In this document: positions 10,324 to 33,256 of the stretch, in pieces | How positions within the stretch are numbered: position 1 is the stretch's first letter | Layout: every line of letters starts with the position of its first letter | Source of the DNA: Escherichia coli | Lineage (GTDB): Bacteria > Pseudomonadota > Gammaproteobacteria > Enterobacterales > Enterobacteriaceae | Direction: 5' to 3' (one strand) | DNA: 64,000 nucleotides | NCBI RefSeq assembly: GCF_024502345.1 | Contig: NZ_JALDNN010000001.1 | The notes under the pieces: model-generated | The model's input: only the letters and a program-made list of their open reading frames with translations | Told to the model about the DNA's origin: nothing | The model's database searches: none | Program-made: the position numbers and the translations under genes

Positions 10324-10326
10324 GAG

Positions 10327-10402: not shown

Positions 10403-10453
10403 GATACTGCGCTAGATACTACAAACTACTTCCACCGAACCCACCGTAATTAG

Positions 10454-10529: not shown

Positions 10530-10531
10530 GG

Positions 10532-11774: not shown

Positions 11775-11783
11775 GCAATTCTC

Positions 11784-12329
<546 letters not shown>

Positions 12330-12339
12330 TTAATTATTA

Positions 12340-13632: not shown

Positions 13633-13764
13633 CATATCTCCCTTATCTGGACCGATGGCCCACGATAATTTAGCAGAATGTTAACAAACTAAAATACACA
13701 AAACTACCAGAACCCTGTGGCAACCGGTGCCTGATGTTGACCGTCGGAACAGTCACCATCACGA

Positions 13765-15030
13765 TTACGGTTTGAAGTCCAATGGCGCGTTTTTGAACAC
13801 TTCATATACTGCCTGGCTTGGTGGTTTCGGGATCTTCGCAAGTTTAGCTGCTGCCAACGCAGCCTGACAAAGTGCGGGATCGCCACCTTCAGGTTTGATA
13901 TCCAGTAACATACCATCGGGTGCCAGTTTTATGCGCAGCGTACAGGTTTTGCCTGCATAGGACGATGCGTCATAGAACTTACTTTCGATAGCAGATTTAA
14001 TCTGTCCGGCATAGTTATTGATATCGGCCCCTGATGCGCCATTGTTTTTAGTATTACCACTCCCGGCAGGCGAAGCATTGTTCCCTTTCGCCCCTCCCCC
14101 CGTTTTCGGTGCATTCTTACCAGAGCTTAGCTCACCGAAAATATCATCTGCCTCTGCGGCCGCTTTTGCTGCAGCGGCTTTTTCAGCTGCAGCTTTTGCC
14201 GCTGCCGCTTTTTTGTCTGCGGCGGCTTTTTCTGCCGCTGCTTTCTTATCAGCTGCTGCCTTTTCAGCAGCCGCTTTTTCTGCTGCTTTTTTGTCGGCTG
14301 CAGCTTTCTCTGCTGCCGCTTTCTTATCAGCTGCAGCCTTTTCAGCAGCCGCTTTCTTCTCAGCTTCTGCTTTGGCTTTTTCAGCAGCTTCAGTTGCCGC
14401 TTTCTTTCTTGCTTCAGCTGCAGCTGCTTCTGCCGCTTCCGCTTTCTTCTTCAGTGCCGCAGCGGCTGCCTCGGCTTTTTTCTGCGCTTCGGCTGCGGCT
14501 TTGGCGGCTTCTGCTTCTGCTTTTTTCTTTGCGTCTGCAGCCGCTTTCTTCGCTGCTTCTTCCGCAGCTTTAGCATCTGCTTCGGCCTTCGCTTTAGCAT
14601 CTGCCGCCGCTTTCGCTGCCGCCTCTTCAGCTTGCTTCTGCTTTAACTCGGCCTGTTTTGCGGCTTCTTCAGCCTGCTTTTTCTGCTCCTGAGCCGCTAA
14701 CCGCTCTTTCTCAAGTTGCTTCAGGCGTTCCTGTTCAGCCGCTTGTTTCTCACGCAGTTCTTCAGCAGCCTGCTGTTCCTTCATCTTGCGCTGTTCATCA
14801 GAACGCTTCGCGCTTGATTCCTGGCTTTGCATGCGTTTGTACTGCTCAACTACCGCACCTGAATCAACCATGACAGCGTCGATGGACGAACCACCGCCGC
14901 CTCCGGCTGAAGCTTCTATATTCTCATCGAACGAACTCCAGATCAGCGCCGCAAATAAGATGACATGCAGCACTGCTGAAATAATTATCGCCCGCTTGAG
15001 CTTGTCGTTTTGTTCGGTTGCCTTTGACAC
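13765..15030 (-). CDS. tolA: Tol-Pal system protein TolA
   Basis: 421 aa; N-terminal TM anchor, long Ala/Lys/Glu-rich helical domain II, C-terminal domain. Confidence 0.92.
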   Translation of the reverse strand: MSKATEQNDKLKRAIIISAVLHVILFAALIWSSFDENIEASAGGGGGSSIDAVMVDSGAVVEQYKRMQSQESSAKRSDEQRKMKEQQAAEELREKQAAEQERLKQLEKERLAAQEQKKQAEEAAKQAELKQKQAEEAAAKAAADAKAKAEADAKAAEEAAKKAAADAKKKAEAEAAKAAAEAQKKAEAAAAALKKKAEAAEAAAAEARKKAATEAAEKAKAEAEKKAAAEKAAADKKAAAEKAAADKKAAEKAAAEKAAADKKAAAEKAAADKKAAAAKAAAEKAAAAKAAAEADDIFGELSSGKNAPKTGGGAKGNNASPAGSGNTKNNGASGADINNYAGQIKSAIESKFYDASSYAGKTCTLRIKLAPDGMLLDIKPEGGDPALCQAALAAAKLAKIPKPPSQAVYEVFKNAPLDFKP

Positions 15031-15094
15031 TCTCGGTTTCCAAAAACTGTTCGCCTGTTACCCGCTCTCTTTCAAGCAAGGGAAACGCAGATGT

Positions 15095-15523
15095 TTAGAT
15101 AGGCTGCGTCATTAAACCAACCGATTTCACACCCGCACTATGTAACAAGTTCAGTGCTTTAATTATTTCATCGTAAGGCACATCTTTTGCGCCACCGATC
15201 AGAAAGACCGTTTTCGGGTTGGCCTTGAAACGGCTGGACACTTCCGCCACCACCTGCTCTGGTGGTAAACGCTCCAGGCGATCTTTCTCAACCACCACGG
15301 TGTACTGACCAATACCAGACACTTCAACAATCACTGGCGGATTATCGTTACTGCTCACCGCCTGTGATTCAGTAGCGTCTGGCAGATCGACCTCCACGCT
15401 CTGGGTGATGATGGGCGCTGTCGCCATAAAGATCAGCAACAGCACCAGCAGTACGTCCAGCAACGGTACAATGTTGATTTCGGACTTGAGATCGCGACGA
15501 CCTCGTCCACGCGCTCTGGCCAT
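15095..15523 (-). CDS. tolR: Tol-Pal system protein TolR
   Basis: 142 aa ExbD/TolR family. Confidence 0.92.
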   Translation of the reverse strand: MARARGRGRRDLKSEINIVPLLDVLLVLLLIFMATAPIITQSVEVDLPDATESQAVSSNDNPPVIVEVSGIGQYTVVVEKDRLERLPPEQVVAEVSSRFKANPKTVFLIGGAKDVPYDEIIKALNLLHSAGVKSVGLMTQPI

Positions 15524-15526
15524 GGC

Positions 15527-16620
<1,094 letters not shown>

Positions 16621-16769
16621 TTTACATCCCGGTAATGCAACAAAAGTTAGAGCTTTTAAACGCTGCTACTATACGCGCGCGATTGAGGTTTGGGAATGAG
16701 GGCAAGTTAAGGGAGCGTAAAAATTTATGGGCCTGGAGCGGCCCATAATTTTTTAAAGAGAATTCTGAT

Positions 16770-17063
16770 TTAAAAGAAGAAGAAAATCAGCCCGACAATG
16801 AGAACAATATCGGCAAGCAATGGGCAAAAAATCCCTTGCCAAAGAACCTTCTGCGGACGAAAGCCCACGCCGTGAATCACACCAGCACAGACGGCCCACA
16901 TCAGCAATAAACCATGCCAGATTTCCAGTTCACTGGTCTTCGCGGCAAAACGAGATGGGTCCCAAAACATACATCCTGCTAACAGAAGCGCCATCACGAA
17001 GGAAAGCGCCCGCAGGGGGCGCTTGTCCATTACCGCATACAAAGTCGCGATAATCTTACTCAT
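16770..17063 (-). CDS. ybgE: Small inner-membrane protein of the cyd operon
   Basis: 97 aa hydrophobic protein immediately downstream of cydX. Confidence 0.85.
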   Translation of the reverse strand: MSKIIATLYAVMDKRPLRALSFVMALLLAGCMFWDPSRFAAKTSELEIWHGLLLMWAVCAGVIHGVGFRPQKVLWQGIFCPLLADIVLIVGLIFFFF

Positions 17064-17176
17064 CAGATGTCTTCTTGACCGGCTTTGCCTGATTCGACGT
17101 GTTCAAGCGCCAGCGCGGTGATTACCCCAAACGAACAGGCAAGAAGCGTTCCCAGAATCCATGCGAAATACCACAT
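17063..17176 (-). CDS. cydX: Cytochrome bd-I oxidase accessory subunit CydX (37 aa)
   Basis: Manual translation of minus strand gives MWYFAWILGTLLACSFGVITALALEHVESGKAGQEDI; its stop overlaps the ybgE start; too short to appear in the ORF track. Confidence 0.85.
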   Translation of the reverse strand: MWYFAWILGTLLACSFGVITALALEHVESGKAGQEDI

Positions 17177-17190
17177 TTTTAGCTCCTTAC

Positions 17191-18330
17191 TTAGTACAGA
17201 GAGTGGGTGTTACGTTCAATATCTTCTTTGGTGATACGACCGAACATTTTCCAGTAACACCAGGCGGTGTAGAGCAGAATGATCGGTACCAGAACCACCG
17301 CAACCCAGGTCATGACGTTAAGCGTCAGCTGGCTGGAAGTTGCATCCCACATTGTCAGACTTGCGTTCATCATGGTGCTGGACGGCATCACAAACGGGAA
17401 CATTGCGATACCGGCTGTCAGGATGATGCAGGCCAGCGCCAGGGAGGAGAACACAAACGCCCACGCGGCTTTATCCATACGTGCAGTCAGGATGGTCAGC
17501 AGCGGCAGAACCACACCCAGTGCCGGAATAGCCCACAGAATTGGCGTGTTGTTGAAGTTAACCAGCCATGCGCCAGCTTCACGAACCACTTCTTTATTCA
17601 GTGGGTTAGAGGCTGCGTAATGGTCCATTGTCGATTTCACGACATAACCATCGATACCGTACATCACCCATACGCCAGCCAGTGCGAAACAGACCAGTGT
17701 CACCAGCGCAGCCACCTGAGCCGTTGCACGGGTACGCAGGTGCAGTTCGCCCACGGTACGCATTTGCAGATAGGTTGCGCCCTGAGTAATGATCATCCCT
17801 ACGCTCACCACGCCTGCCAGCAGGCCGAACGGGTTAAGCAACTGGAAGAAGTTACCGGTGTAGTACAGACGCAGATATTCATCAACGTTGAACGGTACGC
17901 CCTGCAACAGGTTACCGAACGCTACACCAATTACCAGCGGCGGAACGAAGCTACCAATGAAGATGCCCCAGTCCCACATGTTACGCCAGCGGGTTTCTTC
18001 AATCTTGGAGCGGTAGTCAAAACCGACCGGACGGAAGAACAAAGACGCCAGCACGAGGATCATCGCCACATAGAAGCCGGAGAACGCAGCGGCATAGACC
18101 ATCGGCCAGGCAGCAAAGAGTGCGCCGCCCGCGGTGATCAGCCAAACCTGGTTACCGTCCCAGTGTGGTGCAATGGAGTTAATCATAATTCGACGCTCGG
18201 TGTCGTTACGACCGAGGAAACGGGTGAGCATGCCCACCCCCATGTCGAAACCGTCAGTGACTGCAAAACCAATCAGCAGAACGCCAACCAGCAGCCACCA
18301 GATAAAACGCAATACTTCATAATCGATCAT
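17191..18330 (-). CDS. cydB: Cytochrome bd-I ubiquinol oxidase subunit II
   Basis: 379 aa polytopic membrane protein. Confidence 0.93.
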   Translation of the reverse strand: MIDYEVLRFIWWLLVGVLLIGFAVTDGFDMGVGMLTRFLGRNDTERRIMINSIAPHWDGNQVWLITAGGALFAAWPMVYAAAFSGFYVAMILVLASLFFRPVGFDYRSKIEETRWRNMWDWGIFIGSFVPPLVIGVAFGNLLQGVPFNVDEYLRLYYTGNFFQLLNPFGLLAGVVSVGMIITQGATYLQMRTVGELHLRTRATAQVAALVTLVCFALAGVWVMYGIDGYVVKSTMDHYAASNPLNKEVVREAGAWLVNFNNTPILWAIPALGVVLPLLTILTARMDKAAWAFVFSSLALACIILTAGIAMFPFVMPSSTMMNASLTMWDATSSQLTLNVMTWVAVVLVPIILLYTAWCYWKMFGRITKEDIERNTHSLY

Positions 18331-18345: not shown

Positions 18346-19914
18346 TTAGCGTGCCGGCTGAGTAGTCGTGGAAGACTGCTCAAAGTGATAGCGACCGGTT
18401 TTCAGGCTGCTTGGGCCGAGGCGTGCAAACTTGAACATTAAGAACAATTCTGCCACCAGGAACAGGGTATACAGGCCGCAAATCAGCACCATTGAGAAGA
18501 TGAGATCGCCTGCGGTCAGTGACGAGTTCGCCACAGCTGTCGGCAGCACTTCACCGATAGCCCACGGTTGGCGGCCATATTCAGCCACGAACCAGCCCGC
18601 TTCTACAGCAATCCACGGCAGCGGAATACCGTACAGCGCGGCGCGCAGCAGCCATTTTTTCTCGCCAATGCGGTTGCGGATGACACTCCAGAAAGAGAGC
18701 GCGATGATTGCCAGCAGCAGGAAGCCACACGCCACCATGATACGGAACGCGAAGTACAGCGGCGCTACACGCGGAATGGAGTCTTTGGTTGCCTGTTGAA
18801 TCTGCGCTTCAGTCGCATCAGCCACGTTTGGCGTATAGCGTTTCAGCAGCAGACCGTAACCGAGGTCTTTCTTCATGCTATTGAACTGGTCACGAACTGC
18901 CTGGTCGGTAGAACCAGAACGCAGTTGCTCGAGCAGAGAGTACGCCTTCATCCCGTTACGAATGCGTTCTTCATGCTGCACCATCAGTTCTTTCAGGCCG
19001 ATAACTGGAGTATCCACGGAACGCGTTGCAATGATGCCCAGCGCGTAAGGGATCTGGATCGCAAATTTGTTCGTCTCCTCTTCCTGATCAGGAATGCCGA
19101 ACAGAGTAAAGGCAGCAGGCGCAGGTTGCGTTTCCCACTCGGCTTCAATAGCAGCCAGTTTGGTTTTCTGCACGTCGCCCATTTCGTAACCAGATTCATC
19201 ACCCAGAACAATAACAGACAGAACGGCAGCCATACCGAAGCTGGCAGCGATAGCAAAGGAGCGTTTAGCGAAGGCGAAGTCACGACCTTTCAGCATATAC
19301 CATGCGCTGATACCGAGGATGAACATCGCGCCAGTCACATAACCAGACGCTACAGTGTGAACGAATTTCACCTGAGCAACCGGGTTAAGCACCAGCTCGG
19401 AGAAGCTCACCATCTCCATACGCATAGTTTCAAAGTTGAAATCGGACGCGATTGGGTTTTGCATCCAGCCGTTCGCAACCAGAATCCACAGTGCGGACAG
19501 GTTTGAACCGAGCGCCACCAGCCAGGTGACACACATATGCTGAACTTTACCCAGACGATCCCAACCGAAGAAGAACAGACCTACAAAGGTGGATTCGAGG
19601 AAGAAGGCCATCAGACCTTCGATTGCCAGCGGCGCACCGAAGATATCCCCTACATAGTGGGAATAGTAAGACCAGTTAGTCCCGAACTGGAACTCCATGG
19701 TCAGACCGGTAGCCACACCCAGAGCGAAGTTGATACCAAACAACTTGCCCCAGAACTTGGTCATATCTTTATAAATCTGTTTGCCGGAAAGGACGTAGAC
19801 CGTTTCCATAATGGCCAGCAGGAACGCCATACCGAGCGTCAGTGGCACAAAAAGGAAGTGGTACATCGCGGTCAAGGCAAACTGTAAGCGCGACAGTTCG
19901 ACTATATCTAACAT
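18346..19914 (-). CDS. cydA: Cytochrome bd-I ubiquinol oxidase subunit I
   Basis: 522 aa from [12 protein letters not shown]; ORF-track start is one codon upstream. Confidence 0.93.
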
Positions 19915-20251
19915 CATGACTCCTTGCTCATCGCATGAAGACTCCGAGAGTGAACCCCGTTAGAAAGGGTCACACGCATGCCCCAATACAAAATTATTTG
20001 CTCGCCTCTATCGTTGCCATTTCATCAAAAGAGGAAAAGACAATGATAAAAAAGTTACAAATATGTTAATGAATAAACCAAATTGATCCCGTAATTATAT
20101 TACGCCGCAAAATCCTTACAATAAACAGGTTTTTATTGAGCAAATTTGCATTTTTCGACAGTGATCAATTTATAGCGAAATTGTCACGATCTCACCAATT
20201 TGATCTACGACAATTTATCGTGTTTTGCAGATTTTTTTCAAGAATTAAAAA

Positions 20252-20265
20252 TTGATTTATATCAA
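20252..20265. promoter_or_regulatory. FNR-type palindrome in the long AT-rich cydA upstream region
   Basis: Perfect TTGAT-N4-ATCAA (ttgatttatatcaa) about 340 bp upstream of the cydA start codon. Confidence 0.5.
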
Positions 20266-20719
20266 AACCAACCAAATATGTTAATTATGTATAAACCATA
20301 GATCATTGGTGATTTTATTGTTAATTTATTGTGAAATATTTATGCAACACAATTATTACAATGAAAAGGTATAGATAAAAAACCAGTGTTTTATTTAACA
20401 GAACCGCCCAATCAACTTTTTATAATACCAATTGATTAGAGTAGCCAATTTGTTGCTATTTTACATAACATATTTTTATCAAAGTTAATTGATTGTTGCC
20501 TTTATGAGCACCGACCGTAAGCCCGTTATGTTATTGTTTCATTAGTAATAATCACTTAAATGTATCGATGAAACAGGTATGACTTACCGGGAGTGATTGT
20601 TTCTGAGTGAACAGAGGCCACTTTCGCCTGATAAATGAAAAATGAGCGATTTTTGCAAGTTAGTTTTTCTATAGCCGAGTACGCTCAGCGCCTCGCTTGA
20701 TTACAATGAGGTTGCTGCT

Positions 20720-21664
20720 ATGAGTCCTGATAATATCGGTTCGGCTGTCAATCGCTTCTCAGGTTGGCCATCTAATGATCCTCTAAAAACAGATGAAGAA
20801 TCAATGAAATCACCCGTGACTGTGCAAGTAATAAAGATGATTGCCGCCATCCTTGACCCACATCGGATAGTCGTTGGAATTGATACACTTTATACAACGC
20901 AGCGCGAAACATTTACCTCAGAGAGTCAACAGCTCATTGAATCAGCATTGCAAACACTTCATGTGATGAATTTAAATAATCTGGAAACAAATCGCGATGA
21001 AGAAGGTCACTATCTGGCTTTTGAATATAACGTTGACACCTCTGACAGAATAACCGTTTCTGCTTATAATGAAAAAAAGCCTGGCTGCTATGGCCAATGT
21101 CTTTTAATACAGGATGACGAAACAGACTTATTTAACCTGATAAAAATTAAAATTTTCGAAGCCAGGCATAATTATGTCGCTCAATTGATGAGCGATCCGG
21201 AATTTATGTTCAAATTCAGTTATAGCGCTCAACAAAATAGATTAGAACCTCATCTTCTGGTTCCCGCTTATTTCCCTCTAAAAACAAACGAACCGGTTAC
21301 GCAAGAGGATGTACTGTTACTTTATCGTTTCTTTAAAATGAATGATGATTTTAATAAATTAACATCAGAGGAATACATGAGTATCATGACTCCTCTGATG
21401 AAGTGTGAGCGTAGCGTCCACGACAACAACAGGTATGTGACGGGCAAAGATACCCATCTTCTGGACTATCCTCCTTCTGGTAACCAGATACATTTCCATA
21501 TTTTTCCTGACGAATCAGCAACACTAGTCCTTTATTTTTCAAACAATGACCTTGAATGTTTCGTCTTTGAAAGAGATATTCCTAGCCAGTATCGCTTTTT
21601 CAAAATGTTTACCAATCTGGCACTGGTTATAGATCAGTTAACCGAAGCCAATAAAATACTTTAA
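20720..21664 (+). CDS. Hypothetical protein, 314 aa, low-GC, no recognisable domain
   Basis: Long ORF with GAGG RBS 9 nt upstream; GC visibly lower than flanking core genes; polar Ser/Thr/Asn-rich N-terminus; absent from the K-12 arrangement. Confidence 0.6.
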   Translation: MSPDNIGSAVNRFSGWPSNDPLKTDEESMKSPVTVQVIKMIAAILDPHRIVVGIDTLYTTQRETFTSESQQLIESALQTLHVMNLNNLETNRDEEGHYLAFEYNVDTSDRITVSAYNEKKPGCYGQCLLIQDDETDLFNLIKIKIFEARHNYVAQLMSDPEFMFKFSYSAQQNRLEPHLLVPAYFPLKTNEPVTQEDVLLLYRFFKMNDDFNKLTSEEYMSIMTPLMKCERSVHDNNRYVTGKDTHLLDYPPSGNQIHFHIFPDESATLVLYFSNNDLECFVFERDIPSQYRFFKMFTNLALVIDQLTEANKIL

Positions 21665-21744
21665 TTTTCTATATATCCCTATGGCAAATATTGCTAAACA
21701 ATGCCTGGGGATTAATTTTTATTACTCACGGAAAGATTTAAATA

Positions 21745-22167
21745 ATGATACCATCTCAGATCTCTTTCAATACCCTTCCAGTCAATGCAACATACGCTTC
21801 AGAGACAACAGTTGACACACAAAAATTCTCTGACATCCTCTACTCAGCGGGGTGTTCCCTAAAGGATATGGCTTATCTGAGCAGATGTCTGGCATCAATA
21901 CACCCGACTCTCGCCAAAAACATTTATGAAACAGAAAATCTCAGCGATCAAAAATTACTGCATATTGATTGCCGTAGTACAAATGACATCAAGATAAATA
22001 TCTTTTTTGGTCAGCAACGAGAAGGATTAATTGAAATTAGTTCTGACACAGTTATTTTTTCGATACTGTCTTCATTGATTGACTCCGCCATTTCTAAATT
22101 TCAACATCAAAACCCCGTTAACGGTTCAGTTAATCCTGAACTATTGTATAAGGATTATACTGATTAA
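21745..22167 (+). CDS. Hypothetical protein, 140 aa, low-GC
   Basis: ORF 80 bp downstream of the 314 aa ORF, same strand and same composition; Ser/Thr/Ile-rich N-terminus. Confidence 0.5.
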   Translation: MIPSQISFNTLPVNATYASETTVDTQKFSDILYSAGCSLKDMAYLSRCLASIHPTLAKNIYETENLSDQKLLHIDCRSTNDIKINIFFGQQREGLIEISSDTVIFSILSSLIDSAISKFQHQNPVNGSVNPELLYKDYTD

Positions 22168-22714
22168 ACCCACCCAGTCGCGAAAAATGGCCTGCGTTAT
22201 TGCCAGACGTAATAAAACCGTTGATTAACGTTACTCATACTGGTAGCACCTTCATGTACCTCTCTTTTTTACGAAAAATCAAAAGAGCTAACTAAGGTCA
22301 TAATTCGCATGAATCATTAACCATTTGTTATTTTCAACATTATTTTTACATTAAGCAGAAATGAATTGCAGTGAAATTCGACTTAAATCTTATGAAATGC
22401 ATTTACTCATGGCTAAAACCACGTCACAAAAATGCAAATTAGAAGTAGATCACAATTATCTCAATACATTAAATCAAGTTAATTTTAAAAATTTAACATT
22501 CATGTCATTAGTTGACATAACACACTGAATTAACATGGAAATTTAAAAACACACTTTAAACAATCATTTCCCGAAAGACATTTTGAAAATAGATCAATTG
22601 CAACATTACGGTCAGATAAAGACACTCCTGTGATATTAAACCTGTGCCGTTATGAACGGCCATAAATACGACGTGTGTAACTTATTTTACTCTCTGTCTT
22701 ACAAAGGATTACCC

Positions 22715-23164
22715 ATGAAGAAAGCAACACTTGTGATTGGCGTTATTGGCGCGGACTGCCATGCAGTAGGCAATAAAGTTCTGGACCGCGTTTTTAGCAA
22801 CCACGACTTCAGAGTCATTAATCTGGGCGTAATGGTCAGCCAGGACGAATATATTGATGCTGCCATCGAAACTGGCGCTGACGCGATTATCGTCTCCTCT
22901 ATCTATGGGCATGGCGATATCGACTGTCTGGGCATGCGCGAACGCTGCATCGAGCGTGGACTGGGTGACATCCTCCTCTATGTGGGCGGTAACCTGGTGG
23001 TCGGAAAACATGACTTCGCTGACGTGGAAACCAAGTTCAAAGAGATGGGATTTGATCGCGTCTTTGCCCCAAGTCATGACTTAGAAGATGTTTGTCAGCT
23101 GATGGCCCACGATATCAATCAACGTCATGACGTTGATACTCGTATTCTTGAAGAGGCTATCTGA
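22715..23164 (+). CDS. glmS: Glutamate mutase (methylaspartate mutase) S subunit, B12-binding
   Basis: 149 aa from [22 protein letters not shown] (cobalamin-binding DxHxxG-type motif); RBS aagga upstream; ORF-track start at 22652 is an extension. Confidence 0.85.
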
Positions 23165-24552
23165 TGCAAATCGTCTCTGTCGATATTGGATCGACGTGGA
23201 CCAAAGCTGCCCTCTTCACCCGGGAGGGGGACGCGTTAACGTTGGTTAACCACGTACTGACCCCAACCACCACCCATCATCTGGCGAAGGGGTTTTTCTC
23301 CAGCCTGAACCAGGTGTTAAACGTAGATAATGCCCTCCCCCTGTTAAACAGCGGTGAGGTTGCATTGAAGTATTCCTCCTCTGCCAAAGGTGGGCTGGCG
23401 GTTGCCGCAATGGGATTGGTGCCTTCTATCACCCTGGAAACCGCGAAAGTAACCGCTCACTCTGCGGGGGCTAAAATTGCGCAATATTACGCCTACAAGC
23501 TGAACCGCCGTGATATCCAGGCACTGGAAGAAACGCAGCCCGATATTCTCTTGTTCACCGGCGGCACCGACGGCGGAGAAGAAAGCTACGGACTGAATAA
23601 CGCCCGTGTGCTGGCAGAATCCAAACTCGACTGCGCCATTATTTATGCCGGAAACCGGGATATTCAGGACGAGGTGCAGGAGATCCTCGGGCATAAAGAC
23701 CTGACCATCGTCGACAATGTTCTGCCCGATCTTGACCATCCGAACCCTTTAGCCGCACGCCAGGCTATTTGCGACATATTCCTTAAACGCATCGTTAAAG
23801 GGAAAGGGCTGGATGTCATTGTTGATAAAACAGGCGAAGAACCAATGCCGACACCATGGACGGTCTTTGAACTGGTCAAGGCAATCAGTAACGTCGATCA
23901 CAGCTGGAAAGAGTTCATGCTGATCGACATGGGCGGCGCAACCACCGATGTTTATTCCGCCGGTGCCAACACGCTCTCGCCCGACACCGTTTTACACGGC
24001 GTACCGGAACCCTTCGTAAAACGGACGGTGGAAGGCGATCTGGGAATGCGCGTCTCGGCAGTGGTGGTTGGTGAAAGTGCGAAAGAGTTAGTCAATGTGA
24101 ATTTTGCTCAGCAACCCGCACAGCTGGACGCTTTTTATCATTACCTCCGTCATCTAGTCGCTCATCCCGACTACTTACCCGCAAATGCAGAAGAGAAATA
24201 TTTCGATACCGTCCTGGCCGGACTGTGTGTGGGTTATGCCACCGAAAGACATGCGGGCACCAAAAAAGAGGTCTGCACCTGCGTCGGCAATGTCGATTTA
24301 CAGATGGGACGTGACCTGACAACCGTGCGTAAAGTCGTCGGATCCGGCGGATGGCTCTCGCGTGCCAGTCAGTTCGATATGCATCACTGGTTGAAATACC
24401 GCGAGTTAAACGACGACGGTAAACGCATTCTCTTACCGACCGAATTTGAATATTACCGCGATTCCCGGGGGCTATTACCACTGCTGGCAAACGTCGCCAG
24501 AGTCGATCCGCTGGCCGCCGCGCGCACCAGTATTCAATGCTTAACCCTATAA
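23164..24552 (+). CDS. glmL: Glutamate mutase-associated protein GlmL (MutL-like)
   Basis: 462 aa; start overlaps the glmS stop (ATGA); sits between the S and E subunits as in clostridial glutamate mutase operons. Confidence 0.8.
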   Translation: MQIVSVDIGSTWTKAALFTREGDALTLVNHVLTPTTTHHLAKGFFSSLNQVLNVDNALPLLNSGEVALKYSSSAKGGLAVAAMGLVPSITLETAKVTAHSAGAKIAQYYAYKLNRRDIQALEETQPDILLFTGGTDGGEESYGLNNARVLAESKLDCAIIYAGNRDIQDEVQEILGHKDLTIVDNVLPDLDHPNPLAARQAICDIFLKRIVKGKGLDVIVDKTGEEPMPTPWTVFELVKAISNVDHSWKEFMLIDMGGATTDVYSAGANTLSPDTVLHGVPEPFVKRTVEGDLGMRVSAVVVGESAKELVNVNFAQQPAQLDAFYHYLRHLVAHPDYLPANAEEKYFDTVLAGLCVGYATERHAGTKKEVCTCVGNVDLQMGRDLTTVRKVVGSGGWLSRASQFDMHHWLKYRELNDDGKRILLPTEFEYYRDSRGLLPLLANVARVDPLAAARTSIQCLTL

Positions 24553-24570
24553 CAATTAAGGCTGCAATCA

Positions 24571-26016
24571 ATGGAACTTCGAAATAAGAAATTAACCCAT
24601 GACGAATTCATGACCGAGCGGCAACAGGTACTGAAAACCTGGGAAACCGGCAAGGATGTTGAAAACTTTGAAGATGGCGTTAAATACCAACAAAACATTC
24701 CTGAGCATAAACGCTTCTCTCATGCCCTGCTGAAAGCAGACAAGGAAGGTAAAACCCTTAGCCAACCGCGCGCAGGTGTGGCGCTGATGGACGAACACAT
24801 CGAACTGCTGAAAACACTACAAGAAGAGTGCGATCTGCTGCCAAGCACCATCGATGCATATACCCGTCTGAATCGGTACGAAGAAGCGGCTGTAGGGATT
24901 AAAAAATCCATCGAAGCCGGAACCTCTAAACTGAACGGTTTACCGGTAGTTAACCATGGTGTCGCAGCTTGCCGTCGCCTCACCGAAACCCTGCAAAAAC
25001 CGCTACAGATCCGCCACGGCACGCCAGATGCGCGTCTGCTGGCTGAAATCTCAATGGCCAGCGGCTTTACCAGTTATGAAGGCGGTGGCATTTCCTACAA
25101 CATTCCGTATGCCAAACGTGTAACGCTGGAAAAATCGATCCGCGACTGGCAGTACTGCGACCGTTTAATGGGGATGTACGAAGAACACGGGATCCGCATC
25201 AACCGCGAACCGTTTGGCCCACTAACGGGTACGCTGATCCCGCCGTTTATCTCGCACTCTATCGCGATAATCGAAGGCTTGCTGGCGCTGGAACAGGGTG
25301 TGAAATCTATCACCGTTGGTTATGGCCAGGTCGGCAGCCTGACGCAGGATGTTGCGGCGATCCAGTCTCTGCGTGAACTTGCACACGAATACTTTCAGAG
25401 CTATGGCTATACCGACTATGAATTAAGTACCGTGTTTCACCAGTGGATGGGCGGCTTTCCGGAAGACGAATCGAAAGCGTTCGCTATTATCTCCTGGGGC
25501 GCAGCCGTCGCGGGGATGTCTGGTGCCACCAAACTCATCACCAAAAGTCCGCACGAAGCCTGGGGCATTCCGACTGCCGCTGCCAACATTCAGGGGCTGA
25601 AAGCCTCCCGCCAGATGCTCAACATGGTCAATGAGCAGAAATTCCCGCCGTGCCCTGCGGTTGAACTGGAAATTGAACTGATTAAGAGCGAGGTTCGCGC
25701 AGTACTGAATAAAGTGTTCGAACTGGGTAATGGTGATATTGCGCGCGGAACGGTGCTGGCATTTGAAGCGGGCGTACTGGATGTGCCGTTTGCGCCAGCC
25801 GCCTGCAACGCGGGCAAAATTCTTCCGGTCCGTGACAACACCGGCGCGATACGCGTACTGGAAGCCGGAGCCGTTCCATTGCCAAAAGATATTCTCGACC
25901 TCCACCACGATTACGTTGCGGAACGCGCACGCTGTGAAGGACGCCAACCGACATTCCAGATGGTTGTAGATGACATCAATGCTGTATCCCACAGTAAATT
26001 AATAGGAAGACCATAA
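24571..26016 (+). CDS. glmE: Glutamate mutase (methylaspartate mutase) E subunit
   Basis: 481 aa, typical E-subunit size and operon position. Confidence 0.85.
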   Translation: MELRNKKLTHDEFMTERQQVLKTWETGKDVENFEDGVKYQQNIPEHKRFSHALLKADKEGKTLSQPRAGVALMDEHIELLKTLQEECDLLPSTIDAYTRLNRYEEAAVGIKKSIEAGTSKLNGLPVVNHGVAACRRLTETLQKPLQIRHGTPDARLLAEISMASGFTSYEGGGISYNIPYAKRVTLEKSIRDWQYCDRLMGMYEEHGIRINREPFGPLTGTLIPPFISHSIAIIEGLLALEQGVKSITVGYGQVGSLTQDVAAIQSLRELAHEYFQSYGYTDYELSTVFHQWMGGFPEDESKAFAIISWGAAVAGMSGATKLITKSPHEAWGIPTAAANIQGLKASRQMLNMVNEQKFPPCPAVELEIELIKSEVRAVLNKVFELGNGDIARGTVLAFEAGVLDVPFAPAACNAGKILPVRDNTGAIRVLEAGAVPLPKDILDLHHDYVAERARCEGRQPTFQMVVDDINAVSHSKLIGRP

Positions 26017-27257
26017 TGAAAATAAAACAGGCCCTGTTCACCGCTGGCTATTCCTCATTCTATTTCGATGACCAGCAGGCGATAAAAAACGGAGCGGGTC
26101 ATGACGGCTTTTTTTATACCGGGGAGCCGGTAACACAGGGGTTTAACGCCGTTCGTCAGGCCGGGGAGTGCGTATCGGTACAGTTGATTCTGGAAAACGG
26201 CGCGGTCGCCGTAGGTGACTGTACTGCCGTACAGTATTCCGGGGCAGGCGGTCGCGATCCACTGTTCCTCGCAGAGCACTTTATTCCGTTCCTCAACGAC
26301 CATATCAAGCCATTACTGGTAGGCCGCGATGTGGATGCTTTCCTGCCGAATGCCCGTTTCTTCGACAAATTGCGTATTGACGGCAACTTGCTGCATACCG
26401 CCGTGCGCTACGGATTATCACAGGCGCTGCTTGATGCTACCGCGCTGGCAACCGGCCGTCTGAAAACTGAAGTGGTCTGTGATGAATGGCAGTTGCCACG
26501 CGTGGCGGAATCCATTCCATTATTTGGTCAGAGCGGCGACGATCGATATATCGCCGTCGATAAGATGATCCTTAAAGGCATCGACGTGCTGCCCCATGCG
26601 CTGATTAATAACGTCGAAGAGAAGCTGGGCTTTAAAGGTGAAAAACTGCGCGAATATGTCCACTGGCTGTCGGATCGCATTCTGAGCAAGCGCACCAGCG
26701 CACGCTACCACCCAACCCTGCACATCGATGTATACGGCACTATCGGTCTGATCTTCGATATGGATCCGCTTCGCTGTGCGCAATACATCGCCAGCCTGGA
26801 AAAAGAAGCGCAAGGCCTGCCGCTCTACATCGAAGGGCCGGTCGATGCCGGTAACAAGCCCGATCAAATTCGCCTGCTGACCGCGATTACCAAAGAGCTG
26901 ACGCGCCTCGGTTCCGGCGTGAAAATTGTGGCCGATGAATGGTGTAACACCTACCAGGATATTGTTGATTTCACTGATGCTGCCAGTTGTCACATGGTGC
27001 AAATCAAAACCCCGGATCTGGGCAGTATTCACAACATCGTCGATGCGGTTCTTTACTGCAACAGCCACAGCATGGAAGCGTACCAGGGCGGCACCTGCAA
27101 TGAAACTGATGTCAGTGCCCGCACCTGTGTCCACGTCGCCCTTGCCGCTCGCCCTATGCGTATGCTGGTAAAACCAGGGATGGGCTTTGACGAAGGCCTC
27201 GATATCGTCTTCAACGAAATGAATCGTACTATCGCGCTGTTGCAGGCTAAGGATTAA
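26016..27257 (+). CDS. mal: 3-Methylaspartate ammonia-lyase (methylaspartase)
   Basis: 413 aa; N-terminus (FYFDDQ.AIK.GAGHDGF.YTG ... AVQYSGAGGRDPLFLA) closely resembles clostridial methylaspartase (enolase superfamily). Confidence 0.9.
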   Translation: MKIKQALFTAGYSSFYFDDQQAIKNGAGHDGFFYTGEPVTQGFNAVRQAGECVSVQLILENGAVAVGDCTAVQYSGAGGRDPLFLAEHFIPFLNDHIKPLLVGRDVDAFLPNARFFDKLRIDGNLLHTAVRYGLSQALLDATALATGRLKTEVVCDEWQLPRVAESIPLFGQSGDDRYIAVDKMILKGIDVLPHALINNVEEKLGFKGEKLREYVHWLSDRILSKRTSARYHPTLHIDVYGTIGLIFDMDPLRCAQYIASLEKEAQGLPLYIEGPVDAGNKPDQIRLLTAITKELTRLGSGVKIVADEWCNTYQDIVDFTDAASCHMVQIKTPDLGSIHNIVDAVLYCNSHSMEAYQGGTCNETDVSARTCVHVALAARPMRMLVKPGMGFDEGLDIVFNEMNRTIALLQAKD

Positions 27258-27260
27258 CAA

Positions 27261-28631
27261 ATGGCTCGTTCTTTTAAAGTCTTATCGCCAACGGCAATCC
27301 TCGGGTATGGATTCCCGGAAGAGAGCTTCCGCAAAGCGATGGCAGAATCGCCCGATCTGATCGCCGTTGATGCAGGCTCTTCCGATCCAGGCCCCCACTA
27401 CCTCGGGGCAGGCAAACCGTTTACCGATCGCGCAGGGGTCAAGCGCGATCTGCGCTATATGATCACCGCAGGCGTGCAAAATAATATACCGGTGGTGATC
27501 GGAACGGCTGGCGGTTCTGGTGCCGCACCACACCTGGAGTGGTGCCGAGAAATAATTCATGAGATTGCCCGGGAAGAGCACCTCTCGTTCTCGATGGCGC
27601 TGATCCCGGCAGACGTTGACAAAGCCATCGTCCACCAGGCGCTGGATAACGGCAAAATCACGGCGCTGGAGTTTGTCCCGCCGTTAACCCACGACGCGAT
27701 TGACGAAAGTACGTATATCGTCGCGCAAATGGGCATCGAACCCTTCCAGCGTGCGCTAAAAGAAGGCGCGCAAGTGGTGCTGGGTGGGCGCGCTTACGAC
27801 CCGGCCTGCTTTGCTGCGCTACCGATCATGCAAGGCTTTGATGAAGGTCTGGCGCTGCATTGTGGGAAAATCCTTGAGTGCGCAGCAATCGCCGCAACGC
27901 CCGGCTCAGGCTCTGACTGTGCGATGGGCATCATTGATGACAACGGCTTTACGCTGAAGACATTTAATCCGAAGCGTAAATTTACCGAAACGTCAGCAGC
28001 TGCACACACACTGTATGAGAAATCCGATCCTTACTTCCTGCCAGGACCTGGCGGCGTGTTGAATCTGAAAGGCTGCACATTTAAAGCGGTCAATAACGGC
28101 GAAGTGTACGTCAGCGGTTCTAAGCATGAAGAAACGCCGTATGCCCTGAAACTGGAAGGTGCACGACGGGTGGGCTTCCGCTGTCTGACCATCGCCGGAA
28201 CGCGCGACCCGATTATGATCGCCGGGATCGATAAAATCATCGATGAAGTCAAAACCAGCGTTTCGCGTAACCTGTCGCTCGACGATGACAGCATTCGCAT
28301 CAATTTCCACCTGTACGGCAAAAACGGGGTGATGGGAGACCATGAACCGATGCAAACTGCCGGGCATGAGCTGGGGATTGTCCTTGATGTAGTTGCACCG
28401 ACCCAGGAAATTGCCAACAGCGTTTGCTCGCTGGTGCGCTCTACCATGCTGCACTACGGCTATGAAAACCGCATCGCTACCGCAGGCAATCTGGCGTTCC
28501 CGTTCTCCCCTTCTGATATCCAGGGCGGGCCGGTATACGAATTTTCCATATATCACCTGATTGAAGCCAACGACGCTCTGCGTTTTGATTTCCATATTGA
28601 ACAGGTGACGCCAGAAGGAGTTCAGGCATGA
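27261..28631 (+). CDS. Uncharacterised conserved protein (tentatively AtuA-like/DUF1446 type), translationally coupled to mal
   Basis: 456 aa ORF starting 3 nt after the mal stop; normal GC; family assignment is from memory and needs an HMM search. Confidence 0.7.
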   Translation: MARSFKVLSPTAILGYGFPEESFRKAMAESPDLIAVDAGSSDPGPHYLGAGKPFTDRAGVKRDLRYMITAGVQNNIPVVIGTAGGSGAAPHLEWCREIIHEIAREEHLSFSMALIPADVDKAIVHQALDNGKITALEFVPPLTHDAIDESTYIVAQMGIEPFQRALKEGAQVVLGGRAYDPACFAALPIMQGFDEGLALHCGKILECAAIAATPGSGSDCAMGIIDDNGFTLKTFNPKRKFTETSAAAHTLYEKSDPYFLPGPGGVLNLKGCTFKAVNNGEVYVSGSKHEETPYALKLEGARRVGFRCLTIAGTRDPIMIAGIDKIIDEVKTSVSRNLSLDDDSIRINFHLYGKNGVMGDHEPMQTAGHELGIVLDVVAPTQEIANSVCSLVRSTMLHYGYENRIATAGNLAFPFSPSDIQGGPVYEFSIYHLIEANDALRFDFHIEQVTPEGVQA

Positions 28632-28945
28632 AACAGTCAATTGTCTCACTGGCGCAAGTCATTCGTTCGAAAAATGCCGGACCTTACGAACTGGTTTTAG
28701 ATATTTTATTTAAAACGAAAGAAAACTATGAGCGAGTTAAATCATCAGGGCAATTAACCCCAGAACTGATTGCGCGCTTATATCATGTTGAACCTGACTT
28801 TATTCATCGTATTGTCTGGTTTGATCCTTCTAACGCAGTAAAAATCGTCATGCCACGAGATATTATCTCCGGGAATGTAGGTGACAATGATGTCTATGGT
28901 GCACAGCAACATGCACCTTTATTAAATATGAGTTTCGATTTGTAA
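28628..28945 (+). CDS. Small uncharacterised protein (tentatively DUF4387 type), overlaps upstream gene by 4 nt
   Basis: 105 aa ORF with ATGA overlap to the 456 aa ORF; last gene of the operon. Confidence 0.6.
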   Translation: MKQSIVSLAQVIRSKNAGPYELVLDILFKTKENYERVKSSGQLTPELIARLYHVEPDFIHRIVWFDPSNAVKIVMPRDIISGNVGDNDVYGAQQHAPLLNMSFDL

Positions 28946-29084
28946 AAATCCGAATACTTTTAGCCAACTGACATCCCGTCACTTATTACAGTTCAACACT
29001 TCAGCTATTTGTAAGGTTGTAATAGCAGGTAGATGCCTGAATCTCTATTCAGGCATCTACTTCTCCTGATTCTGATTTATCGCC

Positions 29085-29378
29085 GTGCACCTGATGGAGG
29101 AAAAAATGAAGAAAATAAGTTTAACCACGATGATTCTTTTGGCGCTGGTACTTGGAATGATTATCGGCGTAGTGCTCAATAACACTGTTTCACCGGAAAC
29201 AGCAAAACTCTATGCGCAAGAAATATCGATATTCACGACGATTTTCTTACGACTGATAAAAATGATTATCGCTCCGTTAGTGGTCTCTACCCTGGTGGTA
29301 GGTATTGCTAAAATGGGAGATGCCAAAGCCCTTGGTCGTATTTTTTCTAAAACACTCTTTTTATTTATTTGCGCCTCA
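29085..29378 (+). pseudogene. 5' fragment (about 98 codons) of a GltP/DctA-family dicarboxylate/amino-acid:cation symporter, truncated by IS1
   Basis: N-terminus [23 protein letters not shown]...[30 protein letters not shown] matches the conserved first TM segments of GltP-type symporters; frame runs into the IS1 left end and stops at 29405. Confidence 0.8.
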
Positions 29379-29433
29379 GGTGATGCTGCCAACTTACTGA
29401 TTTAGTGTATGATGGTGTTTTTGAGGTGCTCCA

Positions 29434-29709
29434 GTGGCTTCTGTTTCTATCAGCTGTCCCTCCTGTTCAGCTACTGACGGGGTGGTGCGTAACGGCAAAA
29501 GCACCGCCGGACATCAGCGCTATCTCTGCTCTCACTGCCGTAAAACATGGCAACTGCAGTTCACTTACACCGCTTCTCAACCCGGTACGCACCAGAAAAT
29601 CATTGATATGGCCATGAATGGCGTTGGATGCCGGGCAACCGCCCGCATTATGGGCGTTGGCCTCAACACGATTTTCCGCCATTTAAAAAACTCAGGCCGC
29701 AGTCGGTAA
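29434..29709 (+). CDS. insA: IS1 InsA protein
   Basis: 91 aa [43 protein letters not shown]... Confidence 0.95.
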
Positions 29710-30131
29710 CCTCGCGCATACAGCCGGGCAGTGACGTCATCGTCTGCGCGGAAATGGACGAACAGTGGGGATACGTCGGGGCTAAATCGCGCCAGCGCTG
29801 GCTGTTTTACGCGTATGACAGGCTCCGGAAGACGGTTGTTGCGCACGTATTCGGTGAACGCACTATGGCGACGCTGGGGCGTCTTATGAGCCTGCTGTCA
29901 CCCTTTGACGTGGTGATATGGATGACGGATGGCTGGCCGCTGTATGAATCCCGCCTGAAGGGAAAGCTGCACGTAATCAGCAAGCGATATACGCAGCGAA
30001 TTGAGCGGCATAACCTGAATCTGAGGCAGCACCTGGCACGGCTGGGACGGAAGTCGCTGTCGTTCTCAAAATCGGTGGAGCTGCATGACAAAGTCATCGG
30101 GCATTATCTGAACATAAAACACTATCAATAA
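29628..30131 (+). CDS. insB: IS1 InsB reading frame (expressed as InsAB' transposase by -1 frameshift)
   Basis: 167 aa ORF in the -1 frame overlapping the insA 3' end; classic IS1 organisation. Confidence 0.9.
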
Positions 30132-30146
30132 GTTGGAGTCATTACC

Positions 30147-30555
30147 AATCGCCGTTATTAGCTAAAGAATGAATATTAACAATAATATCGGGATGTAACT
30201 TTGTGAATTCATGTAAATTTGGGATTAACCAGTGGGTACTAAAAGTAGGATTAACGGCAAGTTCAATAACCTGAACCGTAGGCTGCCAGGTCATAATGGT
30301 ATTGGTATCGCGTTCCAGCTTATTTAATGTTTCTTTTACTATCCCCAGGTAATACTTCCCTGCATCATTAAGAAAAATGCGTTTTTTAGAGTGTGAAAAT
30401 AACGGAGTACGTAAAAATTCCTCCAGCGCACTTACTTGTCTGAATACTGCACTTTGGGTTAACGCTAACTCCTCTGCCGCTCTGGTATAACTTTCATGAC
30501 GTGCGACGACCTCAAAAGTCACCAGCAGTTCCGTTTTAGGTATTTTCCCTCGCAT
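30147..30555 (-). pseudogene. 5' fragment (about 136 codons) of a LysR-family transcriptional regulator, truncated by IS1
   Basis: N-terminal HTH typical of LysR (TFEVVARHESYTRAAEELALTQSAVFRQVSALEEFL); reading frame runs into the IS1 right end. Confidence 0.8.
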
Positions 30556-31107
30556 AATGCCGTCCCTTAAAAATAGTTTAAACCATCAAAAATACATTAC
30601 TTATTACGAAGTAATGGTAACAAAGCAGCAATAAATAATTTATAAGAATCATGATTGACATTTATAAACCAGTAAGGCTGGCGTGACAAATATCTTAATC
30701 AGATAATAATAATCCGAAAAGCACAGCGCCTTTCGAATTATCCGGAATCACATTAAGTGAAAATTATTAAATTGATATCATTTATCATATCTGTGGATAT
30801 TATGATAAACAATCAACAAAGATTTTATTTTTGATTTATAGCATATCCATCTAAGAATTTTTGCGATGCTGCAATATCCGGGGTAAAGACCCGATCCTGG
30901 CTGACAAATGGCACGACTTGACGAAAAGCGGTGAACATCGCTTTTGTTGATTTACTTAACGCTACGGTCAAACGCTGGGAAGCCAGTGCATCAGGTAACG
31001 ATTCGAAATTCGCCGTCGTTCTTATTCGTGGCTTGCGGTCGGTCGCGGCAATCCACAGTGGCTGTGGTCATGCAGTCAAGCCTGCAGTCAGATTTCGACC
31101 GTGGTTA

Positions 31108-31140
31108 ACCGTTTAAGGTATAAAAAAGGCCATCATACGA
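31108..31140 (-). terminator. Rho-independent terminator downstream of sucD
   Basis: Minus-strand hairpin ggccatcgtatgatggcc followed by TTTTTTAT. Confidence 0.65.
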
Positions 31141-31220
31141 TGGCCAACCATGTCGAAACCGACAGCCCTTCGCCATTCCTGTAGAGGGAAGCGGCGAGGG
31201 CTATTTCTTATTACAGATAT
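31110..31220 (-). ncRNA. sdhX: Possible SdhX (RybD) sRNA from the sucD 3' UTR
   Basis: About 100 nt between the sucD stop and the terminator, the position where the 3'-UTR-derived sRNA lies in K-12; sequence identity not verified. Confidence 0.4.
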
Positions 31221-32090
31221 TTATTTCAGAACAGTTTTCAGTGCTTCACCGATATCCGCCAGGCTGCGAACGGTTTTCACGCCTGCGGCTTCCAGAGCAG
31301 CGAATTTCTCATCCGCAGTCCCTTTCCCACCGGCAATGATGGCACCCGCGTGGCCCATACGTTTGCCTTTCGGCGCAGTCACACCAGCGATGTAACCCAC
31401 AACTGGCTTGGTAACGTGCTCTTTGATGTACGCAGCTGCTTCTTCTTCAGCGCTACCGCCGATCTCACCGATCATCACGATCGCTTCGGTCTGCGGATCT
31501 TTTTCGAACATTTCGAGAATGTCGATAAAGTTAGAGCCAGGGATCGGGTCACCGCCGATACCGACACAGGTCGACTGACCGAAACCGTAATCCGTGGTCT
31601 GTTTAACCGCTTCATAGGTCAGTGTACCGGAACGGGAAACGATACCCACTTTACCCGGTTTGTGAATGTGACCCGGCTGGATACCGATTTTGCATTCACC
31701 CGGAGTGATAACGCCCGGGCAGTTCGGGCCGATCATACGAACGCCGGCTTCGTCCAGTTTCACTTTCACAGTCAGCATATCCAGCGTCGGGATGCCTTCA
31801 GTGATGGTGATAATCAGTTTGATGCCTGCATCAATAGCTTCCAGAATGGAGTCTTTGCAGAACGGTGCTGGTACGTAGATAACAGAAGCGGTAGCGCCAG
31901 TAGCAGCAACAGCTTCACGCACGGTGTTGAACACCGGCAGGCCGAGGTGGGTAGTACCGCCTTTACCTGGGGTTACGCCGCCAACCATTTTAGTGCCGTA
32001 TGCAATGGCCTGTTCTGAGTGGAAAGTCCCCTGGCTACCAGTAAAGCCCTGGCAGATAACCTTGGTGTTTTTATCAATTAAAATGGACAT
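31221..32090 (-). CDS. sucD: Succinyl-CoA synthetase alpha subunit
   Basis: 289 aa. Confidence 0.95.
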
Positions 32091-33256
32091 TATTTCCCCT
32101 CCACTGCGGCAACAACCTGCTGAGCTGCATCCGTCAGACCTTTTGCTGCAATAATATTCAGGCCGCTGTCAGCCAGTTTCTTCGCGCCGAGTTCGGCGTT
32201 GTTACCTTCCAGACGTACCACGACCGGTACGTTAACACCCACTTCTGCTACCGCGCCGATGATACCGTCAGCGATCAGGTCGCAACGAACGATACCGCCG
32301 AAGATGTTAACCAGAACGGCTTTCACTTTGTCGTCAGAGAGGATGATTTTGAACGCTTCGGTTACACGTTCTTTGGTTGCGCCGCCGCCAACGTCAAGGA
32401 AGTTAGCCGGTTCGCCGCCGTGCAGTTTAACGATGTCCATCGTACCCATCGCCAGACCTGCGCCGTTAACCATACAACCGATGTTACCGTCCAGCGCAAC
32501 GTAGTTCAGTTCCCACTGTGCAGCCTGTGCTTCACGCGGATCTTCCTGCGACTGGTCACGCATTTCGCGCAGATCAGGCTGGCGGAACAGTGCGTTGCCA
32601 TCAGCGCCCAGTTTGCCGTCGAGGCAAATCAGATCGCCCTGTTTGGTAATGACCAGCGGGTTGATTTCGATCAGCGCCAGGTCACGCTCCAGGAAAATGG
32701 TCGCCAGGCCCATGAAGATTTTGGTGAACTGCTGAACCAGTTTACCTTCCAGACCCAGTTTGAACGCCAGCTCGCGTCCCTGATACGGCATCGGGCCAGT
32801 CAGCGGATCAAGCGCAACTTTGTGGATCAGGTGCGGAGTTTCTTCCGCCACTTTTTCGATTTCCACGCCGCCTTCGGTAGAGGCCATAAAGACCACGCGA
32901 CGTGAACTACGGTCTACAACGGCACCGAGATACAGCTCTTTAGCGATATCGGTCGCCGCTTCAACCAGAATCTGGTTAACCGGTTGGCCATTGGCATCTG
33001 TTTGATACGTTACCAGACGCTTGCCCAGCCAGTTTTCTGCAAAAGCACGGATGTCTTCTTTACTGTTTACAACTTTCACACCGCCCGCTTTACCGCGGCC
33101 ACCAGCGTGAACCTGACATTTCACTACCCACGGACCGGCACCGATTTTTGAAGCGGCTTCTTCTGCTTCGCGCGGAGTAGTACAGGCATAACCCACCGGT
33201 GCTGGTAAGCCATAGCGGGCAAAAAGTTGTTTTGCCTGATATTCATGTAAGTTCAT
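32090..33256 (-). CDS. sucC: Succinyl-CoA synthetase beta subunit
   Basis: 388 aa ([16 protein letters not shown]...); stop overlaps the sucD start. Confidence 0.95.

Follow-up and report, generated by a model that had tools for sequence, protein, structure and literature searches.

A methylaspartate-pathway island in Escherichia coli with an intact six-gene core and an IS1-associated deletion that removed fumD

In a 64-kb stretch of Escherichia coli DNA (the window, analyzed here at its full length), positions 22715-28945 hold six tightly packed same-strand open reading frames (ORFs) with no internal stops, glmS, glmL, glmE, mal, cmlA and cmlB. These genes are the conserved core of an enterobacterial island for the methylaspartate pathway, which would convert glutamate to pyruvate and acetate via 3-methylaspartate, mesaconate and citramalate. 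All six are equal in length to their counterparts in O157:H7 strain EDL933, from which they differ by 46 synonymous and 10 non-synonymous codon differences. An earlier note on this DNA had recognized the first four genes and read them as a complete operon without the mesaconase gene fumD, with a recognizable pathway ending at mesaconate unless FumA/FumB or the two genes after mal took over. We find instead that a copy of the insertion sequence IS1 stands downstream of the core, in place of a segment that contains fumD in EDL933.

The first four genes were assigned with NCBIfam equivalog models applied with curated cut-offs. GlmS scored 253 bits against NF002612 (cut-off 110) and 246 bits against TIGR01501 (cut-off 136). 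It is 61% identical to the Clostridium cochlearium protein (1I9C_A) and keeps the DxHxxG motif of base-off/His-on cobalamin binding (D14-x-H16-x-x-G19), its GADCHAVG aligning with GSDCHAVG of 1I9C_A. GlmL, whose gene sits between those of the S and E subunits (glmS and glmE), scored 509 bits against NF040745 (cut-off 475) and 893 bits against TIGR01319. GlmE scored 864 bits against TIGR01503 (cut-off 390), and its residues 1-481 aligned end to end with the C. cochlearium subunit (6H9E_B/1CCW_B) at 58% identity. All five positions matching Arg66, Arg100, Arg149, Glu171 and Tyr181 of the C. cochlearium enzyme, which we take to be substrate-binding residues, are conserved. Mal scored 543 bits against TIGR01502 (cut-off 286); its identity is 93% to the enzyme of Citrobacter amalonaticus (1KKO) and 56% to that of C. 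tetanomorphum (1KCZ). In a gapless alignment to 1KCZ, residues Q172, H194, D238, E273, D307, Q329 and K331 (C. tetanomorphum numbering), presumably the catalytic and metal-binding residues, are identical at 7 of 7 positions.

Intact glmS, glmL, glmE and mal are confirmed at this site, and with all four proteins above curated cut-offs the earlier assignment to glutamate mutase (S and E subunits with the accessory protein GlmL) and methylaspartase stands. The comparison with Clostridium enzymes that the earlier note had proposed gave 56-61% identity for GlmS, GlmE and Mal against the solved structures. From these matches, GlmS and GlmE are predicted to interconvert glutamate and 3-methylaspartate in an adenosylcobalamin-dependent reaction. 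The first two steps are homologous to those of the clostridial pathway (C. cochlearium and C. tetanomorphum), with the cobalamin motif and catalytic residues kept and the genes in the same S-L-E-mal order. The later steps differ: in Clostridia the mesaconase has two subunits (MesAB) and the citramalate lyase is of the citrate-lyase type, made of CitDEF homologues (PMC4682846), whereas the enterobacterial island has a single-chain FumD and an unrelated AtuA/DUF4387 lyase, CmlAB. Of the two gene overlaps described earlier, the 1-nt overlap of glmE and mal (TAATG) is as stated, but glmS and glmL also overlap by 1 nt (TGATG) and not by ATGA, which is found at the 4-nt overlap of cmlA and cmlB. The remaining junctions are gaps of 18 nt (glmL/glmE) and 3 nt (mal/cmlA).

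The two genes that follow mal had been regarded as uncharacterized and as candidates for taking over the mesaconase step. This suggestion fails, as both match the enzyme that acts after mesaconase. CmlA aligned without gaps over 456/456 residues, at 92.1% identity, with the chain named 'Citramalate lyase, subunit A (cmlA)' in the Protein Data Bank (PDB; 9ERQ_A/9EVF), and residues 1-104 of CmlB matched 'Citramalate lyase, subunit B (cmlB)' (9ERQ_B) with E = 5e-57. Two adjacent, ATGA-overlapping genes of the window are full-length matches to both solved chains. The function of CmlAB was taken from these PDB molecule names and from a preprint that uses the Raoultella enzyme, in which CmlAB of Raoultella planticola cuts citramalate directly to pyruvate and acetate (bioRxiv 10.64898/2026.01.16.699985). 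On this similarity, the genes of the window encode CmlA and CmlB, and their products are predicted to cleave (S)-citramalate to pyruvate and acetate.

Gene order points in the same direction. In a survey of one genome per species, with loci scored by tblastn, the order glmS-glmL-glmE-mal-cmlA-cmlB was kept in about 55 species spanning Enterobacterales, Aromatoleum/Azoarcus, Telmatospirillum, Bacillota and Dictyoglomaceae, and cmlA always came after mal. This conservation provides independent context evidence that cmlAB belong to the pathway. Because cmlAB encode the step beyond citramalate, the designed end products would be pyruvate and acetate, not mesaconate, and the pathway of the window would have a hole in mid-route, not a dead end.

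These matches also bear on annotation. Kronen and Berg saw a DUF1446 gene downstream of mal in 2015 and called the fate of citramalate unclear; they also remarked on the misannotation of cmlA in the O157:H7 strain Sakai (PMC4682846), whose record (NC_002695.2) lists '3-methylaspartate ammonia-lyase' twice, the second entry being cmlA. Given PDB 9ERQ, the RefSeq name of cmlA, 'acyclic terpene utilization AtuA family protein', is misleading as well. The citramalate lyase that these authors could not find is the AtuA/DUF4387 pair, which still appears in genome records under 'acyclic terpene utilization' or 'methylaspartate ammonia-lyase'.

In O157:H7, FumD clusters with the glmS-mal genes (PMC4682846), as the earlier note had stated, and this clustering is seen in EDL933. 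The order there is glmS-glmL-glmE-mal-AtuA-DUF4387-symporter-class I fumarase-cobO, followed by a convergent LysR gene. The islands of EDL933 and Sakai share with that of the window the site between cydA and sucD, the gene order and two low-GC upstream ORFs. With the EDL933 island as the reference for breakpoint mapping (L001), window positions 18400-29378 correspond to L001 positions 1-10980 and window positions 30147-32800 to L001 positions 14891-17545, at 99.0% nucleotide identity. The 3,910 bp between them (L001 10981-14890) are absent from the window, and a complete IS1 stands between the breakpoints (Table 1). No other IS1 copy is present in the window, and this one is 99.87% identical to an annotated IS1B of E. 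coli strain 14EC033. The element lacks a target-site duplication (8-9 bp), which marks simple insertion; the flanking 9-mers, TGCGCCTCA and AATCGCCGT, differ from each other and stand 3,910 bp apart in EDL933. Both features are as expected for an IS-associated deletion. The loss may have come about by adjacent deletion through intramolecular transposition or by recombination of two IS1 copies in direct repeat; both routes fit the sequence equally.

The deletion took out codons 92-426 of the symporter gene, the entire fumD (L001 12096-13748), the entire cobO and codons 137-301 of the LysR gene. A tblastn search of the whole 64 kb with EDL933 FumD (E <= 1e-3) found no class I fumarase, in agreement with the earlier note, and CobO had no tblastn match in the six frames of the window. 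The gene fumD is missing because IS1 replaces 3,910 bp that are present in O157:H7. What remains of the two interrupted genes abuts the element on either side. The symporter stub matched residues 1-91 of the EDL933 protein at 98.9% identity (tblastn); the GltP model NF008440 matches its N-terminal part only, and its reading frame runs 8 codons into IS1. The LysR stub matched EDL933 residues 1-137 at 98.5% identity (tblastn), retains the helix-turn-helix domain and the first part of the effector domain, and has a reading frame that ends within IS1.

Table 1. Features of the island and its borders in the window
Feature	Position	Strand	Description
glmS	22715-23164	+	cobalamin-binding sigma subunit of glutamate (methylaspartate) mutase, 149 aa
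glmL (mutL)	23164-24552	+	glutamate mutase accessory/reactivating protein, 462 aa
glmE	24571-26016	+	catalytic epsilon subunit of glutamate mutase, 481 aa
mal	26016-27257	+	3-methylaspartate ammonia-lyase (enolase superfamily), 413 aa
cmlA	27261-28631	+	predicted citramalate lyase subunit A, AtuA/DUF1446 family, 456 aa
cmlB	28628-28945	+	predicted citramalate lyase subunit B, DUF4387, 105 aa
Hairpin	29027-29062	+	perfect 16-bp stem, 4-nt loop; between cmlB and symporter gene
Symporter gene stub	29106-29378	+	GltP-like dicarboxylate/amino acid:cation symporter, codons 1-91 of 426
IS1	29379-30146	+	complete, 768 bp; both terminal inverted repeats intact
insA	29434-29709	+	IS1 reading frame
insB frame	29628-30131	+	IS1 reading frame
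LysR gene stub	30147-30555	-	LysR-type regulator, codons 1-136 of 301
Accessory island	20291-31121		between cydA and sdhX/sucD; 10.8 kb here, ~14 kb intact
cydA	18346-19917	-	left neighbor of the island
sucD	31221-32090	-	right neighbor of the island
Left-end ORF	20720-21664	+	low GC (34-39%), 314 aa, annotated hypothetical protein
Left-end ORF	21745-22167	+	low GC (34-39%), 140 aa, annotated hypothetical protein

The deletion allele is real, as it recurs in independent public assemblies. The fusion ORFs at the two junctions were looked up by exact sequence in ENA, Logan and NCBI assemblies; the 99-aa symporter::IS1 product occurred in 14 other public contigs and the 137-aa LysR::IS1 product in 18. 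Among their sources were NCBI assembly GCA_050022275.1, Logan assemblies and several metagenome assemblies from ENA, of which one carries the label human gut; both junctions were found together in two samples. All of these contigs match the window across the junctions and for a further 27-140 nt of IS1, with identities of 99.4-100%. With probes that carried only 27 nt of IS1, to avoid IS1 background, neither junction was found among the complete E. coli genomes (0/5,426), and an exact 40-mer of the left junction had no match in JGI metagenome contigs.

The deletion is also recent and lineage-specific, because two loci that encode the exact CmlA of the window and are 99.93% identical to it on both sides (L072, ENA ERZ27310493; L071, GCA_028757225.1) still hold the lost segment, with fumD, cobO and the full LysR gene. 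A further locus (L078, ENA ERZ27268317) shares the left IS1 junction and shows 45 mismatches to window positions 22177-29517, 21 of them clustered at 22218-22545, upstream of glmS; it may reflect recombination in its background or a metagenome consensus built from mixed strains. The gal-tol-cyd flank (window 1-18300) reaches at most 98.3-98.9% full-length identity to any of the 5,426 complete genomes, and matches at 99.93% identity to the locus itself come from draft and metagenome contigs. Complete genomes cover the source lineage (E. coli or possibly Shigella) poorly. When carriage was counted at >=80% of the six-gene block or of the deleted segment present, the block was found in 1,121 and the deleted segment in 1,122 of these genomes. 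Island carriage is thus ~21%, with core and lost segment almost always together, and is near the 26.5% given in 2015 (PMC4682846).

The consequences for the pathway can be outlined as follows. In the intact island, the GltP-like symporter would import glutamate. GlmSE, kept active by GlmL and supplied with a cobalamin cofactor adenosylated by the island CobO, would convert glutamate to (2S,3S)-3-methylaspartate (step 1), from which Mal would form mesaconate and ammonia (step 2). FumD would then convert mesaconate to (S)-citramalate (step 3), and CmlAB would split the latter into pyruvate and acetate (step 4). Missing from the window are the parts for uptake, cofactor adenosylation, mesaconase activity and regulation. 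It would keep steps 1, 2 and 4, and step 3 would fall to the housekeeping enzymes FumA and FumB. The earlier view that the pathway ends at mesaconate does not hold, since cmlAB encode step 4 and it is step 3 that is missing.

Because the step 3 enzyme is lost and the dedicated regulator is destroyed, positions 22715-28945 are most likely now a silent or poorly functioning, decaying remnant left by the IS1 deletion; we consider this explanation as a whole, from gene identities and deletion to consequence, about 80% probable. The functional consequence is what we infer here; the gene identities, the breakpoints, the missing DNA, and the recency and reality of the allele were established directly. 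Several points weigh against this explanation. The core genes are undamaged and have diverged from EDL933 mostly at synonymous sites, so they could still be under selection, or the deletion could be too recent for visible decay. The joining of both junctions by a single IS1 was seen in the window alone, the short-read contigs ending inside IS1. The LysR protein may have been an activator or a repressor. It is also possible that every lost function has a stand-in, since the E. coli genome encodes BtuR and several glutamate transporters elsewhere. For the mesaconase, the catalytic efficiency of mesaconate hydration is 4% (FumA) and 19% (FumB) of that with fumarate (PMC4682846), and engineered E. 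coli that had undergone evolution turned mesaconate into pyruvate and acetate by means of FumA and Cml (bioRxiv 10.64898/2026.01.16.699985). Finally, the clusters of Morganella psychrotolerans (L045/L046), Hafnia alvei (L055), Budvicia aquatica (L042) and one further locus (L043) consist of the six-gene core and the symporter gene, and no class I fumarase lies within 10 kb of any of them.

Taken together, such observations could mean that the truncated island works, with the core expressed, FumA/FumB hydrating mesaconate, BtuR adenosylating cobalamin, glutamate imported by GltP, GltS or GltIJKL, and fumD, cobO and the symporter dispensable. The invariance of the six-gene core in ~55 species is in line with this, as is a strong hairpin between the core and the lost module (Table 1), which suggests that the core is a separate transcription unit. 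We nevertheless judge a working island unlikely. The only regulator of the island is left without its effector-binding domain, and ~99% of E. coli carriers keep fumD alongside the core. Even for the intact O157 island, Kronen and Berg found no conditions of expression, no detectable methylaspartase activity and no growth benefit (PMC4682846). Moreover, growth of the engineered E. coli on mesaconate needed evolution that up-regulated FumA; unevolved cells expressing Cml failed to grow, and native FumA levels were thus insufficient in that strain (bioRxiv 10.64898/2026.01.16.699985). Residual pathway activity via FumA/FumB, an option raised in the earlier note, is possible (PMC4682846; bioRxiv 10.64898/2026.01.16.699985).

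A more far-reaching proposal, to which we assign a somewhat smaller chance again, is that the IS1-truncated allele is a working natural minimal pathway, in which loss of the LysR protein alters (and possibly de-represses) expression of glmS-cmlB while FumA/FumB close the gap between mesaconate and citramalate. If this were true, a wild lineage present in several gut metagenomes would show that the six-gene core suffices for the conversion of glutamate to pyruvate and acetate.

An assembly artefact, in which the symporter and LysR genes each hold an IS1 and the two copies, flanking an intact fumD-cobO segment, were collapsed into one, is highly improbable. A single IS1 without a target-site duplication does have the look of a collapsed direct repeat, and the public short-read contigs confirm the two junctions separately. 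However, the window runs through IS1 without a break and has unique sequence on either side of it, and a single-IS1 deletion of this type, with different breakpoints, is present in the complete genome of 14EC033 (NZ_CP024147.1). Even if the artefact were true, moreover, neither the symporter gene nor the regulator gene would be intact.

The resemblance to 14EC033 is close: a single IS1 stands in place of fumD and cobO between symporter and LysR stubs, and glmS-cmlB are intact, as in the window. Its symporter stub is 471 nt long, versus 273 nt in the window, and its LysR stub 102 nt, versus 409 nt. As both breakpoints differ, the deletion in 14EC033 is an independent event. A left junction shared by the two strains, which would have implied one insertion followed by successive deletions, was considered and dropped when the junction probe and the annotation showed this difference.

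There is next to no chance that the locus is a natural, complete operon that never had fumD and ends at mesaconate, a reading that goes back to the earlier note: although the window has no class I fumarase and other genera have clusters without fumD, this reading is refuted by the breakpoint mapping, in which truncated symporter and LysR genes abut an IS1 that replaces 3,910 bp, by relatives with 99.93%-identical flanks that hold the missing 3.9 kb, and by cmlAB, which encode the step beyond citramalate.

The locus is a damaged copy of a known system (Kronen & Berg 2015, PMC4682846), whose citramalate lyase has since been solved as PDB 9ERQ, and not a new pathway variant; the IS1 allele is ordinary gene decay. 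Its chief relevance is to the annotation and interpretation of the locus. Reading it as a pathway that ends at mesaconate misleads; the intact island would be a full route from glutamate to pyruvate and acetate. The deletion allele also offers a ready-made natural strain in which the need for FumD, CobO, the symporter and the LysR regulator can be examined.

IS1 events and frameshifts have affected the island repeatedly, in different lineages of E. coli. IS1 is found inside fumD in E200086, inside cmlB in ETEC4077/4079, inside the LysR gene (together with a cmlA frameshift) in 2018-05-2CC, and upstream of the LysR gene in MEW; with the deletion of fumD and cobO in 14EC033, at least five further independent IS1 events were observed in the island of other E. 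coli (loci L006, L007, L003, L004 and L002). From these sequences the island looks like a recurrent target of IS1. The uptake gene is decaying independently of IS1 as well, since two different symporter frameshifts occur: a 1-bp deletion at nt 1104 with a stop at codon 370 in L071/L072 (gene at 11846-13126), the two loci most closely related to the window, and a separate 1-bp deletion at nt 252 in L073, which belongs to another lineage. Repeated IS1 hits and frameshifts across E. coli lineages fit weak or conditional selection on the island.

Gene content and setting vary among carriers. In Escherichia whittamii (L038) and Escherichia sp. E1V33 (L052), fumD directly follows cmlB with no symporter gene, and cobO is only a fragment (matching residues 114-200 or 123-167). 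In contrast to the window, the clusters of M. psychrotolerans, H. alvei and B. aquatica have an intact symporter gene, no IS scar and another genomic setting. That of Morganella adjoins cobalamin/siroheme genes (cobA/cysG-like and cobD) and is followed by a 401-aa ORF, which had no family match, and then nirB. Two metagenome-assembled genomes (MAGs) also carry the genes: one contig (L009, JAIJJM010000101.1) binned in a MAG of the actinobacterium Collinsella sp. encodes island proteins with 99-100% identity to their E. coli counterparts, and Citrobacter sp. MAG HRGM_Genome_0066 has two cluster copies (L008 and L018), with CmlA 99% and 91% identical to that of the window. Both cases look like binning contamination.

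In the window, the accessory island occupies the position of mngR-mngA-mngB of K-12; homology to K-12 MG1655 stops at 20290 and restarts at 31122. Some strains have an RtcB-family gene after the LysR gene. It is succeeded by mngB and mngA in L069, L073 and L076 (15532-21371), and by sucD in L006 (12115-13512). In the former three loci the island stands beside the mannosylglycerate genes, and in the window and O157 it replaces them.

With respect to regulation, the Rfam scan of the island found no match, and hence no cobalamin riboswitch. Consensus scans for promoters and terminators gave 16 and 12 hits versus 18.8 and 11.8, respectively, expected from shuffled sequence. The hairpin downstream of cmlB has a predicted RNA fold of -26.9 kcal/mol (z = -4.4), and 0/200 shuffles folded equally well. 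The U tract that follows it is weak, and the structure could be a putative terminator, an attenuator or a protein-binding palindrome. It possibly separates the six-gene core from the symporter-fumD-cobO module.

The left end of the island is AT-rich (GC 34-39%). The two ORFs located there (Table 1) had no NCBIfam, Pfam or PADLOC match, and both were found in every island carrier inspected.

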